Positions 4,227 through 54,453 of a DNA stretch of 64,000 nucleotides are shown piece by piece (positions within the stretch are counted from its first letter, which is position 1; each line of letters starts with the position of its first letter). The notes under the pieces were generated by a model, which searched no databases, had not been told where the DNA came from, and worked only from the letters and a program-made list of their open reading frames with translations. The stretch is from positions 21,868 through 85,867 of the forward strand of contig JANLSK010000006.1 in assembly GCA_031362415.1 (NCBI GenBank), given 5' to 3'. This DNA is from Actinomycetes bacterium. GTDB lineage: Bacteria > Actinomycetota > Acidimicrobiia > IMCC26256 > VFJJ01. The translations under genes were made by a program, and so were the position numbers.

Positions 4227-4784
4227 CTACGTGGTCAGGAGCTCCAGCACCCGGTCGACGATGGCGTCGGCCCGAGCGAGGAGCAGGTCTTCGGCGGTGC
4301 CGCCCAACGGGTGCTCCATGACGGCGGTCCGGGCCCGGGGCAGGCCGAAGCTCCTGGCGACGGTCCGGGTGAGGGTCTCGAACTGGGTCGTCGTGACCAC
4401 CACGGTCGGGATCCCGCTGCATTCCAGCTCGACGAGGTCGTGGACACTCCACGACGTGCACGAGCCTCAATCGGCTGAACCGGTGAGCACGAGATCGGCA
4501 CTGGCTCGCACCGCGGCGAGCTCGCTGGGCTCGGATGGTGTCGCGGCGCCACCCCGCTTGGCCACGGTGACGCCCACGACGGCTCCCGTCCTCTCGGCGA
4601 GACGGCCGGCGATGTGCTCCATGACCAGGCGGGCGTTGGGCTTGCCATTGTCGAGCACGACGATGCGGCGGCCGGTGAGCACGGCGGGCGCGGCGGTCAA
4701 CACCGCGGGCGGGGTGCCGACGTCACCTTCGGGTGAAAGAATGCGAACCACGGGAACTCCTTTGTCCACAAGTGCTTTCGGCAC
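4227..4784 (-). CDS. UGSC-family selenoprotein (in-frame TGA at 4469..4467 read as Sec, codon 106 of 185)
   Basis: Track ORF 4467..4784 stops at a TGA, but the frame continues 79 more codons to TAG 4229..4227. The junction reads LVLTGSAD-U-GSCTSWSVHDLVELECSGIPTVVVTTTQFETLTRTVARSFGLPRARTAVMEHPLGGTAEDLLLARADAIVDRVLELLTT. The U-G-S-C motif and a SECIS-like hairpin 11 nt downstream support recoding. Confidence 0.8.
4437..4455 (-). promoter_or_regulatory. candidate bacterial SECIS hairpin for the UGSC gene
   Basis: mRNA sequence is UGA-GGCUCGUGCAC-GUCGUGGA-GUG-UCCACGAC. This is a perfect 8-bp stem with G/U in the apical loop, starting 12 nt after the UGA. Confidence 0.55.
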
Positions 4785-4802: not shown

Positions 4803-5861
4803 TCAGGGTTCGAGGGCGAGCGTGACCGACCGGGTGACACCCCACGACGGGATCACACACGAGTGCTTGCCCGCACCTCCGGCGACGAAGACCTTGACGT
4901 TGTCGGGGCTGTCGGTCATGGGCAGGAGGTGGTCGTCGGCCACGGCGTGCATCCACGGTCGCCACCGCCGGTTGGCGAACGCCTCCCTGAACATCGCCGC
5001 CGGCAGGCGGGCCCGCTCGTACAGGTAGGCCGACACGTCGGCCCGGGCCCATCCGGCCCCGGCGATGGTGGCCGCATGCTCGGGACACAGGGCCACGAAG
5101 AACTCGCCCTCGGAGATGCAGGCGTTGTTCATACCCAATGACGACATGGCCGATGCGGCCTTGTCAAGGATGCGGGCCGGCTCGTCGGATTCCATGTCGT
5201 GGAAGTTGTGCGGGTTCTCGCCGCAATGGACGGTGACGGCCGACTCGGCATCGACGCCGACGCTGCGCTGATAGCCGCCCCAGGGTGAGGAAACGACGTT
5301 CTCCCCCACGCAGAACGTGTATTTCGACGGCTGACCCTGGGTGGAGGCGTCGCCGGGACCAGGCGTGGCGCCGGCGACATGGAGCAACACCAACCGGACC
5401 GCCCGGCCCACCGTGGCGTTGGCCCGGTTGCCGGGACCGAACGCGCCGAGGCCGCCGTTGAAACCCAGCTCGTCAACCGCCCGACCGTGCACGATCGTCA
5501 ACACCGACACGGGATGCGTGGTGGCGTTGACTCCCCGCAGGTTCACCTGAGGCTGACCCAGCGCCCGGATGGCCGTCACCACCACGGGCATCCACTCGGG
5601 CCGGCATCCGGCGAGCACGGCGTTCACCGCTATGGCCCGGCGAGTGGCCTTGCCGAAGCGGGGCGCCAACACGGCGACGACCTCGTCGGGATCACGGTCG
5701 CCCGTCGCCGCGAGCATGGCGGCGACCCGGTCCTCGGTGGGCGCGACGAGCGGGAGACCGTCGCCCCATCCCCGGGCCTCGAACGCCGCGTACAAAGCCT
5801 CGGGACTCTCGATCGGGATGTCGAGGAACGCCATGTCGGGCATCTGATCGTCGGGGGCCAC
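4803..5861 (-). CDS. conserved protein of unknown function (GWGDGLP motif), directly upstream of the UGSC gene
   Basis: 352-aa ORF with non-repetitive, globular-looking sequence (ARGWGDGLPLVAPTEDRV..., NATTHPVS, VHCGENPHNFHD). Its stop is 18 nt before the UGSC start. The start could be any of M1, M7 or M10. Confidence 0.7.
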   Translation of the reverse strand: MAPDDQMPDMAFLDIPIESPEALYAAFEARGWGDGLPLVAPTEDRVAAMLAATGDRDPDEVVAVLAPRFGKATRRAIAVNAVLAGCRPEWMPVVVTAIRALGQPQVNLRGVNATTHPVSVLTIVHGRAVDELGFNGGLGAFGPGNRANATVGRAVRLVLLHVAGATPGPGDASTQGQPSKYTFCVGENVVSSPWGGYQRSVGVDAESAVTVHCGENPHNFHDMESDEPARILDKAASAMSSLGMNNACISEGEFFVALCPEHAATIAGAGWARADVSAYLYERARLPAAMFREAFANRRWRPWMHAVADDHLLPMTDSPDNVKVFVAGGAGKHSCVIPSWGVTRSVTLALEP

Positions 5862-5957
5862 GGCCGAGTCTCACGCCTGCCCGTCCCCGCCGGCAACACT
5901 CGGGTTCGGGTGTGGGGCATGCTTGCGCCCGTTCGAGCCCGTCAAGCTGGCAGACGG

Positions 5958-33390: not shown

Positions 33391-33430
33391 CGCGGGCTCG
33401 GTGACGGCCCCGGGGAGCGCCGGCGTCACG
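33386..33430. terminator. inverted repeat spanning both stop codons of convergent genes (candidate bidirectional terminator)
   Basis: cgtgacgc (33386..33393) pairs with gcgtcacg (33423..33430). The loop is about 29 nt, GC-rich, with additional pairing. No U-tract. Confidence 0.3.
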
Positions 33431-35135
33431 AACGCTCCATCCGGTCGAAGGCGCTCTCGAGAGCCGCAAGCCGCTGGTGGTACTCGTTGCGATAGCTGCC
33501 GTGGGTGATGACGTAGCGCGCATCGGCGAGGAGATCGGCCACGAGGTTGCGCACGGCGTGCTCGGGCGTGGCCACCTGCTCGGGACCCATGCCGCTGCTC
33601 GCGAGCAACACCTCGATGTCGTCGGGGAGCAGGACCCACGCCCCCGTGTCTGCCGGACGGGCGAGTGCGCTGCTCTCGAGGTGACGCGTCATCATCCCCG
33701 CCGGGAACACCACGGTGACACCGATGCCCTCGTGGGCGAGCTCCTGGCGCAACGTCTCCCCGTAACCCAGCACGGCGAACTTGCTCGTCTGGTAGGCGCC
33801 GAGACGCTCGCTGGGCACGAGCACACCCGACGACGCCGTGAGCACGATCCGCCGCCAACCCGATCGCCGCCGCAGCAGGGGCAGGAACGACGCCACCGTG
33901 CGGACGGTCCCCAGCACGTTGACGTTGATCACCCATGCCCAGTCGTCGTCGGTGAGCCGGTCGATGGCCCCGAACTGTTGCACGCCAACGTTCGCGCACA
34001 GCAGATCACAGCCCCCGAGTCCGGTCTCGACGGCGGCCGCGGCATCGGCCAGGGAACCGAGGTCGCCCACGTCGACCCGGATCGCCATGGTCGCCACGCC
34101 GTGCTCGCTCGCCAAGGTGGTGGCCACGGCTCGAGCCCGGTCTTCGTCGATGTCGAGCGTAGCGATGGCCATACCCGCTTCGGCGAAGCGCCGGCACATC
34201 GCTGCGCCGAACCCCGAACCCGCTCCGGTGACCACGGCGATCCGACCGGCCAGCTCGGTCGGATCGGCAACCCCGGTCGACTCGCCACCCTCGGGAGATT
34301 CAGTACCTTCGGTGGGCTGCCCCGGCTCCACCGGTTCGGCGCTCATCGTGGCCACTACGACGCCGGCGATGCGCCCGTCATCACCGAGGACAGCGGGGGG
34401 CTCGTCGTCATGGAAGGTCACCGAGCATCGGTGGGACGCGTCCTTGTGCACGATCACGTCGGCGTTGGCCATCGTCGGTGCGATGTGCTGTTCGAGATTG
34501 GGGCGGTTGACCTGGGCCCACACCATTGAGGCCATGTCGATGCGAGCGCCGACATCGAGACCTGTGAACTGCCGGTAGAACGAGCCCGGATCGTCTGCGG
34601 CCGCGTCGCACAGCCCGAGAAACCGCTCCACGAACCACGCCTCGACGTGTTCATCGGCAGCGTCGACGTAGACACGACAATGCAGCCGCTCGGCAAGCAG
34701 CGGCGCCAACGCATTCACGCCTTCGAAGATCACGGTGCCCGCTCGCTCGATGCGGAGCGTGTTGACCGGGTCGATGTCGTAGAGGTCGTGCGAGTACAGC
34801 GGCGCCTCGACCACGGGCTGGCCGCCTCGCAGCGCGTCCAGGAACTCGACCATCGCTCCCACGTCATAGGTGTCGGGAAATCCCTTGCGGTACAAGGCGC
34901 CCTGCTCGCAGAGAACCGAGTTCGAGAGCAAGAAGCCATCGGTGGATACGACCACCGCACCCGTAGCGTCGGCGACGGCACGGGCGATGGTGGTCTTGCC
35001 TACGGCGACGGCTCCAGCGATGCCCACGATGAACGGCGCATGCTGGCAGCGGCACCGCTCGATCGCCTCGAGCAGGCCACCGAGCTCGTCACCGGGCTCG
35101 TCACCGGGCCGGCTCGAAGTCGCCGCTCCGGTCAC
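33426..35135 (-). CDS. type I pantothenate kinase-like (CoaA/uridine-kinase fold) P-loop kinase fused in frame to an SDR oxidoreductase
   Basis: GTG 35135 overlaps the upstream stop (GTGA). The N-terminal half has FIVGIAGAVAVGKTTIARAV...VSTDGFLLSN...YRKGFPDTYD...PLYSHDLYD (CoaA pattern). After the linker PVEPGQPTEGTESPEGGEST comes GRIAVVTGAGSGFG...YQTSKFAV (SDR). No stop codon separates them. Confidence 0.75.
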   Translation of the reverse strand: MTGAATSSRPGDEPGDELGGLLEAIERCRCQHAPFIVGIAGAVAVGKTTIARAVADATGAVVVSTDGFLLSNSVLCEQGALYRKGFPDTYDVGAMVEFLDALRGGQPVVEAPLYSHDLYDIDPVNTLRIERAGTVIFEGVNALAPLLAERLHCRVYVDAADEHVEAWFVERFLGLCDAAADDPGSFYRQFTGLDVGARIDMASMVWAQVNRPNLEQHIAPTMANADVIVHKDASHRCSVTFHDDEPPAVLGDDGRIAGVVVATMSAEPVEPGQPTEGTESPEGGESTGVADPTELAGRIAVVTGAGSGFGAAMCRRFAEAGMAIATLDIDEDRARAVATTLASEHGVATMAIRVDVGDLGSLADAAAAVETGLGGCDLLCANVGVQQFGAIDRLTDDDWAWVINVNVLGTVRTVASFLPLLRRRSGWRRIVLTASSGVLVPSERLGAYQTSKFAVLGYGETLRQELAHEGIGVTVVFPAGMMTRHLESSALARPADTGAWVLLPDDIEVLLASSGMGPEQVATPEHAVRNLVADLLADARYVITHGSYRNEYHQRLAALESAFDRMERS

Positions 35136-35812
35136 GACTTCGTGGCCCGTCGTTGCGCCTTGACGCGGGCGTGCTCGAGGTCGATCGGAGCGGTGCGCTC
35201 GCGTTTGATCTCGGCGAAGTTGTCGTAGCGGGCGAGCCAGGAAACGTGGCGCCAGAGCTCGACGGCGTCGGCGTCGTTGGGCGGGGAGCTGATGACCGGG
35301 CCGAACACGGCCGAGCCCTCCCCGTCGTCGAGCACGATGGTGGCCACGCCGAACGCTCCGACCCGGGCGTGCACGGCTCGGTACTCCTCCTGCAACCGGT
35401 CCCAGGTCGAGACGTCGGCCTGGGCCTTCTCGTACAACGTCGGGTCCAGCGCGCTGTCGCGGAGTGCGGCCTCGACCACCGCCGCCTCGGCCAGGTTCTC
35501 GACCCCGTCCCACGTGCGGGCGCCCAACGCCTCGTAGAACCGAGCGACGCCTTCGTTCCCTGCGACGTCGCGAACAGCCACAGCCGTGCGCAACGCCCGT
35601 ATCCCCTTACGTTTCACTGCCTCGTCGATGCTCAGCTCATGATCGGGCGCGTTGTGCAGCTCCAGAGAGAAGAATCGCCACGACGCTTCCACCACGCCGA
35701 GCTCGACCAGCCGGCGGACCCATTTCGAGGTCAGGTAGCACCAGGGTCACAACGGGTCGAAGTAGAAGGCGATGCGTTCGCGTGCGTCGGGTGCGGTCTG
35801 ACCAGAGGGCAT
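35132..35812 (-). CDS. DsbA-like (Rv2466c/mycoredoxin-2 type) thiol reductase with Sec in the active site: U-P-W-C (TGA 35749..35747, codon 22 of 226)
   Basis: The track ORF starts at 35695 (GTG), but the frame is open upstream apart from one TGA. From ATG 35812 it reads MPSGQTAPDARERIAFYFDPL-U-PWCYLTSKWVRRLVELGVVEASWRFF... The TGA occupies the first Cys position of the thioredoxin-fold CxxC motif. The C-terminus VFGPVISSPPNDADAVELW...FAEIKRERT also fits this family. Confidence 0.75.
35696..35715 (-). promoter_or_regulatory. possible SECIS-like hairpin downstream of the UPWC TGA (weak)
   Basis: mRNA GCCGGCU-GGUCG-AGC(U)CGGC is a 7-bp stem with one bulged U and a GGUCG apical loop. It begins 32 nt after the UGA, which is at or beyond the usual distance limit. 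Confidence 0.3.
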
Positions 35813-35832: not shown

Positions 35833-36714
35833 TCACTCCGAGGCAAACCAGGCGCCAGCCTCGGTGCGGACGCGTCGCAGGCCGTCAAGCGCGTCACGGG
35901 TACGAGCCCAGGGCTTCACGACCAGACGGTCGACACCCAGCTCGGCCCAGCGAGCGATGTCGTCGTTGCCGATGGTCGGATCGAGCGTGCAGACGGTGAT
36001 CGAGAACGGCTGGTCCTGCACCGCCCTGCCGACAGCCTCGGTTTCGAGCCGAAGCCGCCGGAGCTCGGCGATCTGCCCGGCGGCTGACTCGAACGTGTGG
36101 GGCATGCTCATCCAACCGTCGTGACGCGCCGCGCGGCGGAGCGCGGCTGGGGACTCCCCGCCCACGAGCACCGGCGGATGGGGCCGCTGCACCGGCTTGG
36201 GCTCGAACATCACCGGATCGAAGCGCCAGAACTCGCCCTCGTGGGCCACGACCTCGTCGGTCCACAGGCGTTTCGCCACCGTGAGGGCCTCGTCGAGCCG
36301 ACGGCCCCGGGCCGCGAAATCGGCATCGGGGCCCAGGGTCGCCGTCATCTCCGCGGCGAGCCATCCGGCACCGACGCCGATCTCGGCCCGTCCTCCGCTC
36401 ACGATGTCGAGGGTCGTGAACGCCCGAGTAGCGATGAACGGATGCCTGAGCCCGAACAGGTAGACGAATGTACCTAATCTAATCTGCGTCGTCCGGGCCG
36501 CGATGAAGCACAGGAGCGCCGGGTAGTCGTGCAGCGGTGTCGACGGAGGAACACCGGCCGACGACCCGTCTGCGTAGAGCGCTCCTGTCATGTCGAGCGG
36601 GAACACGAGATGATCGGGGGTCCACACCGACTCGTAGCCCAGCTCGTCGGCGAGCATCGCGGCTTCGATCCATTGCGCCGTATGGAGATGCGAGAGGGCG
36701 ATGCCGAAGCGCAT
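35833..36714 (-). CDS. LLM-class (luciferase-like) flavin/F420-dependent oxidoreductase
   Basis: MRFGIALSHLHTAQWIEAAMLADELGYESVWTPDHLVFP... starts from ATG 36714. The track start at 36762 adds 16 unlikely residues. Confidence 0.85.
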   Translation of the reverse strand: MRFGIALSHLHTAQWIEAAMLADELGYESVWTPDHLVFPLDMTGALYADGSSAGVPPSTPLHDYPALLCFIAARTTQIRLGTFVYLFGLRHPFIATRAFTTLDIVSGGRAEIGVGAGWLAAEMTATLGPDADFAARGRRLDEALTVAKRLWTDEVVAHEGEFWRFDPVMFEPKPVQRPHPPVLVGGESPAALRRAARHDGWMSMPHTFESAAGQIAELRRLRLETEAVGRAVQDQPFSITVCTLDPTIGNDDIARWAELGVDRLVVKPWARTRDALDGLRRVRTEAGAWFASE

Positions 36715-36908
36715 TCGTGTGTCCCGTCTTGTGGCGTCACGCCAGGTTGCGTGTTTCGACACTCAGCGTCGTGGCCCCGGCCCCGCTGTCGGCCGTCCGA
36801 CAACCTCGACCGTACCTGACATGCCGGCCGCGGGCTCGGGCGGCCGGCGAGCGAAGGTCGGGATCGGCAGCGTACGGAAGGACGTCCGAATGCGCTTCCG
36901 CGGAACGG

Positions 36909-52175: not shown

Positions 52176-52281
52176 CTCGTCGGGACGGGCGGTGGTCACC
52201 TGAACCACGCTACCGGGTGCCGGTCCCGGGCCCTCTGGGATTCCCGGCGCTCTCTTGCTGCCCAGCCGTAGCCTGGAGGCC

Positions 52282-54453
52282 ATGACCCAGCGCGATGTCG
52301 TCAGCTTCTGCCGGATCTGCATTGCGATGTGCGGCATCGTGGTCACGGTCGAGGACGAGCCTCCCGTCGATGGCCACGGCAGCGACGGCACCCGGGTGCT
52401 CCAGGTGCGGGGCGATCCCAACCATCCGCTCTCGCGCGGGTACACCTGCCCCAAGGGCCGGGCCCTGCCCCAGTACCACCACCATCCGCACCGGCTGCAC
52501 CATCCCCGGATGCACGACACGAACTGCACCGGCGCCGACGTCGACGTCGCCACCTCCTGGGACGGGGTGCTCGGCGACCTGGCCAACCGGGTCCGTTCCA
52601 CCGTCGAACGCAACGGCGCGTCGACCGTCGCCATGTACCTGGCCAGCGGCTCGTCGTTCGACACCAACGGCCGCCGGGCTGCCGAGCGCTTCCTGAAGGT
52701 GCTGGGGAGCCCCCAGAAGTACACGGCCACCACGCTCGACACGCCGAGCAAGCCCCTCGTGGCCGAGCTCGTCGGAGGCTGGTCGGGCCTCACGCCGATG
52801 CTCGATCCCGACCGGTGCGGGCTGGTCCTGCTGTTCGGCACCAACCCCGTCGTCTCGCACGGCCACAGCAGTGGCCTCCCCGACCCGATCGTGCGCCTGC
52901 GCGAGGTCCACGCCCGGGGCGGAGAGGTCTGGGTGGCCGACCCGCGCCGCACCGAGACCGCTGCGCTGGCCTCCCGACACCTGTCGCTCAGGGCCGGCAC
53001 CGATTGGCTCGTGCTGGGATACCTCGTGCGGGAGCTGCTCACCGGCACCGGCCCGGGGCTCGACCACGCCTACGTCGAAGCCCACACCGATCCCGCCGAC
53101 CTCGCCGCGGTCACCGAAGCGTTGGCGCCGTTGACGATCGAACTGGTGACCGAGCACACCGGCCTCGCTGGCGCCGATCTCACCGAGCTGCTCGCTGCGG
53201 TGCGCCGGCACAGAAAGGTGAGCGCCCTCACCGGCACCGGCGTGTCGATGAGCCGTACCGCCAACGTGGCCGAGTGGCTGCTGTGGCTGCTGCACATCGT
53301 GACCGGGTCGTACGACACGCCCGGCGGGATGTGGTTCAACCCGGGCTTCTTCTTCCAGATGGACCGGCGCCGGATGACCCCGTCCGACGGCGTTCCCGGC
53401 CCGGGCCCGGCCTCGCGCCCCGAGCTCCCACGCCGCTTCGACGAGTACCCGTGCGCCGGCCTGGTCTCGGAGATCGAGGCCGGCAACGTCACGGCGCTGT
53501 TCGTGGTCGGCGGTAACCCGCTCATGGTGTTCCCCGAGCCCGAGCGCCTCAGGGCGGCCTTCGAGCGCCTCGACGTGCTCGCCGTCGTCGACGTCGTCGA
53601 GACCGAGACCGTGGCCGTCGCCACCCACGTGCTGCCCGCCGCCGATCAGCTGGAACGGGCCGATCTCCCCTGGGCGCTCGACGCCTACCAGCCGGCCGTC
53701 ATCGCCCAGTACACGCCGGCGGTGGTGTCGCCGCCCGCCTCCGAGCACCGGGCCGTGTGGTGGATGTTCGCCGATCTCGCCCGCCGCATGGGGATGCCCT
53801 CGATCCTGCCCGGCGGTCTCGATCCCGACGCCGCCACCGACGACGATCTCCTCGCCCTCCTCGCAGCCAACGGCCGGCTGCCGCTCGACGAGCTCCGGGC
53901 CGCCCCGAGCGCCGTCGTCGTCGAGCGCGCCGTTCACGGATGGGTGCTCGACGGCGTTCTGCCCGACGGACGGTTCCGCGTCGCACCCGAGCCGCTTCTG
54001 GGTCAGCTACGCGAAGCCTTCGAGGCCTTGGCGTCGATCGTCGAAGCCAGTCCGTCGGCATCCTCGACCGCGACAACGGCGACACCAGTGGCACCCGGAA
54101 CACCTGACACGCCGGTGACGCTGCAGCTCATCCCCCGGCGGATCGTCCGCACCATGAACTCCCAGATGCGCGACGTCTCGGCGCGCGGCGACAACGGTGG
54201 GGTCCGGCTCCATCCCCTCGACGCGGCCGAGCGCGGCATCGGCACCGGCGATCAGGTCCGGCTCACCAACGCGTCCGGCACGGGCTGCGGGACGGCCGTC
54301 ATCGACGAGCACGTGAGCCGGGGGGTGATCTCGGTCACCCACGGCTGGGCCAGCCCCAACGCCGGCTCGCTCGCCAGCTCCGACCGCGACGTCGACCCCC
54401 TCACGGGCATGGTCGTGCTGAGCGGAATCCCCGTCACCGTCAGCCGGGCGTGA
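52282..54453 (+). CDS. molybdopterin-dependent oxidoreductase (DMSO reductase/formate dehydrogenase superfamily)
   Basis: MTQRDVVSFCRICIAMCGIVV...GDPNHPLSRGYTCPKG is the N-terminal Fe-S Cys motif. The C-terminal beta-barrel is VRLHPLDAAERGIGTGDQVRLTNASG. The ORF is continuous, with no in-frame TGA. Confidence 0.85.
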   Translation: MTQRDVVSFCRICIAMCGIVVTVEDEPPVDGHGSDGTRVLQVRGDPNHPLSRGYTCPKGRALPQYHHHPHRLHHPRMHDTNCTGADVDVATSWDGVLGDLANRVRSTVERNGASTVAMYLASGSSFDTNGRRAAERFLKVLGSPQKYTATTLDTPSKPLVAELVGGWSGLTPMLDPDRCGLVLLFGTNPVVSHGHSSGLPDPIVRLREVHARGGEVWVADPRRTETAALASRHLSLRAGTDWLVLGYLVRELLTGTGPGLDHAYVEAHTDPADLAAVTEALAPLTIELVTEHTGLAGADLTELLAAVRRHRKVSALTGTGVSMSRTANVAEWLLWLLHIVTGSYDTPGGMWFNPGFFFQMDRRRMTPSDGVPGPGPASRPELPRRFDEYPCAGLVSEIEAGNVTALFVVGGNPLMVFPEPERLRAAFERLDVLAVVDVVETETVAVATHVLPAADQLERADLPWALDAYQPAVIAQYTPAVVSPPASEHRAVWWMFADLARRMGMPSILPGGLDPDAATDDDLLALLAANGRLPLDELRAAPSAVVVERAVHGWVLDGVLPDGRFRVAPEPLLGQLREAFEALASIVEASPSASSTATTATPVAPGTPDTPVTLQLIPRRIVRTMNSQMRDVSARGDNGGVRLHPLDAAERGIGTGDQVRLTNASGTGCGTAVIDEHVSRGVISVTHGWASPNAGSLASSDRDVDPLTGMVVLSGIPVTVSRA

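Follow-up and report, generated by a model that had tools for sequence, protein, structure and literature searches.

Can a TGA codon inside a bacterial gene be sense rather than stop, and what kind of protein would then be made? The question is raised by a gene on the minus strand of a 64,000-nucleotide stretch of an Acidimicrobiia genome (assembly GCA_031362415.1, contig JANLSK010000006.1, positions 21,868 to 85,867 of the forward strand; hereafter, the window). A mechanical list of open reading frames (ORFs) begins this gene at GTG 35695 and gives it 187 amino acids, and the same 187-residue product stands in a public protein catalogue (P0001). An earlier reading of the sequence alone (the original prediction) had noted this start and proposed instead that the gene opens upstream at ATG 35812, is interrupted only by TGA 35749..35747, and encodes a DsbA-like reductase in which selenocysteine (Sec) takes the place of the attacking Cys. 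We find that the gene at 35812-35132 is very probably a genuine Sec gene, predicted to encode a thiol-disulfide reductase with an Rv2466c/Mrx2-like DsbA fold and the active site U22-P-W-C25.

The in-frame TGA falls on the catalytic Cys column of an Rv2466c-like protein

Translation of the minus strand gives a single frame of 227 codons, from the start ATG 35812-35810 to the terminal stop TGA 35134-35132, and both the coordinates and the translation first proposed proved exact. The frame reads MPSGQTAPDARERIAFYFDPL-TGA-PWCYLTSKWVRRL...KRERTAPIDLEHARVKAQRRATKS-TGA, with exactly one internal stop. This in-frame UGA (35747..35749, minus strand) occupies the first, nucleophilic position of U-P-W-C, as judged from the translation, the Cys column of homologues and conservation; the four motif codons span 35749-35738. 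From translation, Pfam and Rv2466c structures, the full recoded coding sequence (35132..35812, minus strand) would specify a protein of 226 residues that has an Rv2466c-like DsbA fold and Sec as residue 22. Its N-terminal 21 codons (35750..35812, minus strand), which include the beta-1 strand IAFYFDPL, are missing from the truncated annotation. The frame is otherwise undisrupted, and the G+C content at third codon positions (GC3) is 0.88 downstream of the TGA. The window as a whole has a G+C content of 69%, and most of its high-GC3 ORFs stop at TGA; with TGA in ordinary use as a stop here, the genetic code is not reassigned.

For profile and homologue comparisons, Cys was typed in place of the TGA in the 226-residue conceptual protein. 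PF22234 (Rv2466c-like) matches it with 87.3 bits against a cutoff of 27, residues 21-204 covering profile positions 1-180 of 180, and PF01323 (DSBA) matches with 38.3 bits against a cutoff of 25.6. Residues 14-213 align with the structures 4ZIL, 4NXI and 5XUR of M. tuberculosis Rv2466c (E about 5e-22), and this near full-length alignment, together with the PF22234 score, bears out the proposed identity as a DsbA-like protein of Rv2466c type. The IAFYFDPL region aligns to Rv2466c residues 11-18, and at the other end FGPVIS..P...A.ELW...Y.NF.EIKRERT aligns with FFGPVLSKIPRGEEAGKLW...YPHFFELKRTRT of 4ZIL. The C-terminal likeness that the original prediction had pointed out is therefore real, the block FGPV.S...LW...F.E.KR.RT being common to both proteins.

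In 4ZIL and 4NXI, the residue aligned with the TGA is the leading Cys of CPWC. To this we add an alignment of 116 Cys-type and 54 Sec-type sequences: all 116 Cys-type homologues have Cys at this position, all 54 Sec forms retain the resolving Cys, and the flanking F-D-P and P-W are nearly invariant. Structures and homologues thus agree that the TGA lies exactly at the first Cys of the CxxC motif. Many of the Cys homologues carry the JGI label ‘predicted DsbA family dithiol-disulfide isomerase’, which we take to be the label of COG2761.

The TGA is conserved in close orthologues and in distant Acidimicrobiia

If the TGA encodes an amino acid, then it should recur at orthologous loci. It is first of all reproduced for the organism itself: two independent assemblies of this organism, from runs SRR20217213 and SRR20217209, each supply a contig that matches the window letter for letter at the site, so that the TGA is supported by different sequencing runs. 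Public records list the three closest homologues (L001-L003; 72-77% identity to the window across the aligned part of the gene) as truncated proteins of 189 residues. In their DNA, the TGA recurs in frame, with ER(I/V)AFYFDPL before it and PWCY(L/Q)TSKWVRRLVELGVVE after it. Over the ten codons that lead up to the TGA, the four orthologues show only synonymous third-position differences (columns 3, 15 and 18), which argues that the upstream segment is translated in this frame. As the TGA and the conserved upstream FYFDPL are both kept at the orthologous loci, a start at the downstream GTG can be dismissed for the orthologues.

We also scanned one genome per species with the pattern TTYGAYCCNNTNTGACCNTGGTG and found 75 loci. 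Full Rv2466c-like proteins with a TGA at the same column are encoded at 55 of them; the other 20 are unrelated, compared with roughly 17 chance matches expected by a rough estimate. Because the codon stands at the same column in 55 species-representative genomes, its conservation is beyond chance. The true hits are nearly all metagenome-assembled genomes of Acidimicrobiia/Acidimicrobiales, many of them sponge-associated Ca. Poriferisocius, and one is labelled Deltaproteobacteria. Public calls for the Sec-type members (L004-L078 of the scan, and P0121-P0128) are truncated to 164-191 residues and bear no selenoprotein name. The comparison with orthologues suggested along with the original prediction thus came out in its favor, with TGA at that codon in L001-L003 and in the 55 genomes and FYFDPL conserved upstream. 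A scan of metagenomes for relatives returned nine loci. Eight of these could be aligned at the motif, every one a Cys form, and they are the Cys control set for the hairpin comparisons below.

Synonymous constraint and hairpins follow the UGA in Sec forms

A selenocysteine insertion sequence (SECIS) downstream of the UGA had been put forward as a check on the Sec reading. Codon comparison and a sliding-window profile mark synonymous-site constraint at codons +1 to +20 after the UGA (35687..35746, minus strand). Overall protein identity in the four-member clade of the window is 72-86%, but at the nucleotide level the stretch from nucleotide (nt) +4 to +83 past the TGA reaches 96%. We counted, among degenerate columns with an invariant amino acid, those with identical codons in all four sequences. 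In this Sec clade, the count is 12/17 at codons +1 to +20 versus 41/106 elsewhere in the gene (Fisher p = 0.018). In the nearest Cys clade, also of four sequences, it is 5/16 versus 41/134 (Fisher p = 1.0), and that clade has nearly the same peptide at +1 to +20 and is less diverged overall than the Sec clade.

Two hairpins lie in this region, numbered here with the U of UGA as nt 1. Hairpin H1 (nt 18-33; 35717..35732, minus strand) has 5 bp, GACCU/GGGUC, around the loop CGAAAU, with a folding energy of -4.6 kcal/mol; there is a G at the second loop position, and 19 nt separate the UGA from the loop. Hairpin H2 (nt 34-55; 35695..35716, minus strand) has 8 bp with a bulged U, the loop GGUCG and an energy of -13.3 kcal/mol (z = -2.06 versus dinucleotide shuffles). 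The annotated start, GTG 35695, falls inside H2.

We scored conservation of the pairs in 19 non-identical Sec forms outside the Poriferisocius group. Over H1 and H2 together, 87.6% of the pair cells are standard, versus 19-56% when the partners are slid by 1-3 nt. The pairs of H1 are kept in 93.7% of cells, with one compensatory change from G-C to C-G at 18:33; among the eight Cys forms, H1 is kept at 77% and H2 at 52%. Single pairs show the same contrast: the closing pair of H1 is present in 18/19 Sec forms versus 1/8 Cys forms, and pair 39:49 of H2 takes the form G-C (13 Sec forms) or, through compensatory changes, A-U (2) or U-A (1), and is unpaired in all eight Cys forms. The sole change in H2 among members of the window clade is C51 to U51, which retains the pair with G38 as a wobble.

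Either hairpin may be the one that binds SelB. H2 is ahead of H1 in energy, in its GGUC-type loop and in the sharper contrast between Sec and Cys forms. In the E. coli fdhF SECIS, a hairpin follows the UGA and carries G23/U24 in its apical loop. H1 presumably sits at the position of the fdhF loop, its own loop starting at nt 23 and having G24; it differs in being short (5 bp, -4.6 kcal/mol) and in having a loop without the GU dinucleotide. The H2 loop, GGUCG, contains what we take to be the GGUC of fdhF, but, starting 38 nt past the UGA, it is about 20 nt more distant than in fdhF.

The Poriferisocius group (L009 and about 35 further loci) has a hairpin of its own, GAC-AGCCC-GUU-GGGUU-C-GUC, at nt +18 to +37. 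This hairpin is well supported: its GUU triloop occupies nt 26-28, and nt 21, which is either A or G, pairs with U33 in both cases. Codons +7 to +12 are invariant in the group and include the locally unusual CGT and GTT. The test for synonymous constraint gives p = 0.067 here, which is suggestive only.

Several results weigh against a SECIS at this site. When minimum free energies were compared with 300 synonymous recodings per sequence, the window gave z-scores of -0.97, -0.27 and -1.26, which are not significant; the mean z-scores do run in the right direction (-0.01 to -0.59 for Sec forms versus +0.29 to +0.47 for Cys forms). Folds of the whole region were not informative against dinucleotide shuffles (z = -0.19 and -0.37). 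The covariation comprises few events among relatives, and the pairs were counted in the very sequences that had yielded the structures. An Rfam scan of the whole window at gathering thresholds found no SECIS model, and a scan at E <= 10 of 151 nt around the TGA and around a second in-frame TGA, in the UGSC-family gene described below, returned only unrelated matches at chance level. RNAalifold found no strong single consensus over all Sec forms outside Poriferisocius, because hairpin registers differ between subclades. Finally, a bSECISearch-like rule set was rejected as a classifier, as it accepted 5/8 Cys forms and missed 9/48 Sec forms. The SECIS check therefore gave a mixed answer: hairpins stand directly downstream of the UGA and synonymous constraint is found only in Sec forms, but the hairpins are not thermodynamically exceptional.

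A second probable Sec gene in the window, and the Sec machinery

The original prediction had counted two Sec genes within 31 kb, and the second is indeed present. It is a UGSC-family (seleno)protein gene (4227..4784, minus strand; start approximate) that translates as ...TGSAD-U-GSCTSW..., the U being TGA 4469-4467. Its match to NF041046, computed with Cys in place of Sec, reaches 120.6 bits, just below the cutoff of 125. A textbook SECIS-like hairpin follows at about 4426-4466 (minus strand; fold of -24.5 kcal/mol); its 8-bp upper stem, at nt 15-33, begins 11 nt past the UGA, its loop holds G23, U24 and G25, and the loop of H1 has the same position as this apical loop. The UGSC family (NF041046) is an unrelated protein family and serves as corroboration only: through this gene, the organism has another gene that needs UGA-Sec decoding.

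Other parts of the window touch on the same subject. Directly upstream of the UGSC gene lies a 355-residue ORF (4803-5870, minus strand) with no NCBIfam match. It ends at TGA 4805-4803, in frame with the UGSC ORF that follows, which may be coincidence. A molybdopterin oxidoreductase of 749 residues (52204-54453, plus strand) has Fe4S4, Molybdopterin and Molydop_binding domains and no in-frame TGA; if it is of the formate-dehydrogenase type, then it is a non-Sec form. A script that looked for further in-frame TGA candidates in the window was too strict and missed both known genes.

If these genes are decoded with Sec, then the cell needs the corresponding machinery. The sequence searched shows none, which counts against our reading, and the literature on related lineages is mixed. 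ARAGORN found no tRNA in the window and no tRNA-Sec in 56 related loci, and a Pfam scan found no SelA, SelB or SelD domain in the 30 window ORFs. SelD also gave no tblastn match in 0.68 Mb of related loci with an approximate E. coli query. In the sponge symbiont bin134, Table S4 of the Aplysina study lists SelD = 1, SelA = 0 and SelB = 0 (PMC5649159); bin134 is the genome of the TGA-carrying locus L046 (MPNQ01000055.1, Sva0996 group). The absence of SelA and SelB could reflect incompleteness of the bin or be real. The bin is about 90% complete in 224 contigs, and the other Acidimicrobiia bin, bin76, has SelA, SelB and SelD (PMC5649159). Most symbiont bins of that study have SelA and SelB together (PMC5649159), and complete genomes of Actinomarina, of the class Acidimicrobiia, carry selA, selB, selC and selD (bioRxiv 10.64898/2026.04.03.716425). 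It is mainly because of the SelA and SelB counts in bin134 that our confidence in the Sec reading is not higher.

Could the UGA be read, or the gene be built, in another way?

The alternative that survives best, although we consider it quite improbable, is that a suppressor tRNA or a near-cognate one, for Trp or Cys, decodes the UGA at a useful frequency, giving a full-length product without selenium. Such read-through would fit the missing Sec machinery in the window and in the related loci searched, the zero counts of SelA and SelB in bin134, and the UGA-C sequence, which is generally known as a leaky stop context. However, a UGA placed exactly on the catalytic Cys column is the classic signature of Sec, and Trp at residue 22 would inactivate the site. 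If Cys were meant, then TGC or TGT lies one mutation away and is what the sister clades use. Read-through also leaves aside the structure-linked synonymous constraint downstream and the presence, in the same window, of the UGSC gene with its own TGA and hairpin.

Still less probable is that the annotation is correct, with a start at GTG 35695, a product of 187 residues that has no redox motif, and 21 upstream codons that are a remnant or a separate small ORF. Gene callers do give such a model everywhere. Against it, the upstream segment is conserved as protein, with synonymous changes only, among orthologues that are 72-77% identical, and FDP-x-TGA-PWC is kept in 55 species. The GTG itself is located within H2, and a protein started there would be without beta-1 and the active-site start of alpha-1 (Rv2466c residues 11-36). 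We conclude that the public 187-residue product is an annotation artefact of UGA read as a stop; an in-frame TGA that codes for Sec leads gene callers to shorten the gene. Lastly, the TGA might stem from recent nonsense mutation, making the gene a pseudogene, or from an error of sequencing or assembly. This view has nothing more in its favor than the stop codon itself and is effectively refuted by the identical sequence in two other assemblies from different runs and by conservation of the TGA in clades whose proteins share only 48-52% identity with those of the window clade; the frame is otherwise intact, with a GC3 of 0.88 downstream.

Active site and predicted function

The preferred reading, a Sec-containing reductase, is firmer for the codon than for the chemistry. 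Rv2466c (Mrx2), a mycothiol-dependent reductase/nitroreductase, shares with the window protein the Pfam family and the motifs FDP-L-C/U-PWC, FGPV(I/L)S and F.E(I/L)KR.RT. The two differ in that Sec replaces Cys19 and that the cis-Pro motif TPT becomes VAT in the window clade, and they are 29% identical. The clade-specific substitution is Ala157 (GCC; 35342..35344, minus strand), at the cis-proline position of the thioredoxin fold. Rv2466c has Pro in this column, as do all 116 Cys forms and 52 of the 54 Sec forms; the window, L001, L002 and L003 have Ala. The low identity and the missing cis-Pro both count against the reading, and because of them the biochemical function is extrapolated. It counts against the reading, too, that no NCBIfam family matches the protein at E <= 0.001.

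The CPWC motif and the mycothiol dependence of Rv2466c are documented (PMC9841431 and references cited there), and for the window protein mycothiol dependence is inferred, carried over from Rv2466c at 29% identity. The Pfam scan of the 30 window ORFs identified no msh gene; the one indirect hint is a gene for mycothiol-dependent formaldehyde dehydrogenase that has been reported in marine Acidimicrobiales (PMC4337565).

By this analogy, the product would be a cytoplasmic reductase in which the attacking Cys of CPWC is swapped for Sec. During translation, SelB-GTP-Sec-tRNA(Sec) would bind one of the hairpins and deliver Sec at the UGA, competing with release factor 2. The U22 selenolate would then attack a mixed disulfide on a substrate or on a low-molecular-weight thiol adduct, mycothiolated substrates being a model borrowed from Rv2466c. 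Cys25 would resolve the intermediate as a selenenylsulfide, and the enzyme would be re-reduced by the low-molecular-weight thiol system of the cell.

Gene neighborhood

Downstream of the recoded gene, an ORF of 569 residues (33426..35135, minus strand) overlaps the stop codon by GTGA. Its N-terminal part matches TIGR00554 (panK_bact) with 196.8 bits, below the cutoff of 235 and with about 77 N-terminal profile positions lacking, and its C-terminal part is a short-chain dehydrogenase/reductase (SDR) domain by SDR models. In this genome, the ORF appears to be a fusion of type I pantothenate-kinase-like (PanK-like) and SDR domains; in L001-L003, the PanK-like neighbor has the same 4-nt overlap and stands alone at 245-254 residues. 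The 569-residue ORF is probably co-transcribed with the recoded gene.

On the other side lies a gene for an F420-dependent, luciferase-like (LLM-class) oxidoreductase (35833..36762, minus strand; TIGR03619, 212.2 bits against a cutoff of 166.9), whose stop is 20 nt before the ATG of the recoded gene. An LLM gene is found just upstream in many distant carriers as well (L012, L044, L054, L060, L070 and other loci of the Poriferisocius group). These upstream LLM proteins are only about 24-25% identical, and the arrangement may be convergence or chance.

Relationship to Cys forms and to known selenoproteins

A quick neighbor-joining tree of the 54 Sec and 116 Cys forms, which is rough and in which the sampling of Cys forms is skewed towards the query, places the Sec forms in no fewer than seven pure clades, interleaved with Cys forms. 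Identity of the window clade to Cys forms is 56-60%, versus at most 52% to any other Sec clade. This pattern suggests repeated exchange of Sec and Cys within the family.

A bolder reading, which we regard as unlikely, is that the window clade (the window, Bin_62_11 and two metagenome contigs) is a functionally distinct selenoenzyme. The clade unites three features, namely the attacking Sec, the loss of the otherwise invariant cis-Pro (Ala157) and translational coupling to the pantothenate-kinase-like gene. If true, then the enzyme would be a selenium-dependent reductase acting on coenzyme A-linked or other non-mycothiol thiol adducts. As part of this reading, the clade might have a two-hairpin SECIS, in which H1 is a folded spacer that brings the distal GGUC loop of H2 to SelB. 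The clade may also represent a recent, independent conversion of Cys to Sec with a newly evolved SECIS, and such an event may be recorded in the tree, as the clade is nearest to Cys forms and not to other Sec forms.

DsbA-like selenoproteins with a UxxC motif are known. They were first reported in 2005 from the Sargasso Sea metagenome as COG2761 DsbA-like proteins with Cys-containing homologues (PMC1088965), and 45 genes in 41 organisms were counted in 2016 (PMC5029168). A 2026 review lists ‘DsbA-like protein form 1’ under PF01323 with UxxC, and lists UGSC proteins too (PMC13188914). The DsbA-like selenoproteins named as examples in the literature consulted are from Deltaproteobacteria and Clostridia (among them Anaeromyxobacter, Desulfovibrio desulfuricans and Desulfotomaculum); published exemplars include NIP15863.1 and AACY01178397. 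The window protein resembles form 1 in having the DSBA domain (PF01323) and Sec first in UxxC, as UPWC. It differs in that the clade here belongs to Acidimicrobiia. In the library searched, we found no paper that links Rv2466c with selenocysteine. Thus, what is known is the class of DsbA-like UxxC selenoproteins, and what is new is the unannotated gene here and its broad, undocumented presence in Acidimicrobiia.

Nothing in this would surprise a selenoprotein specialist. The TGA form occurs in at least 55 species-level genomes, yet the public records that we found are all truncated and without the redox site. As no NCBIfam family matches the protein and the review gives only a Pfam accession, annotation pipelines will probably go on missing it. 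The finding adds an actinobacterial branch of Rv2466c/Mrx2 type to the DsbA-like selenoproteins, and the family offers natural Sec/Cys pairs at 56-60% identity with which to test what selenium gives to a mycoredoxin-type reductase.

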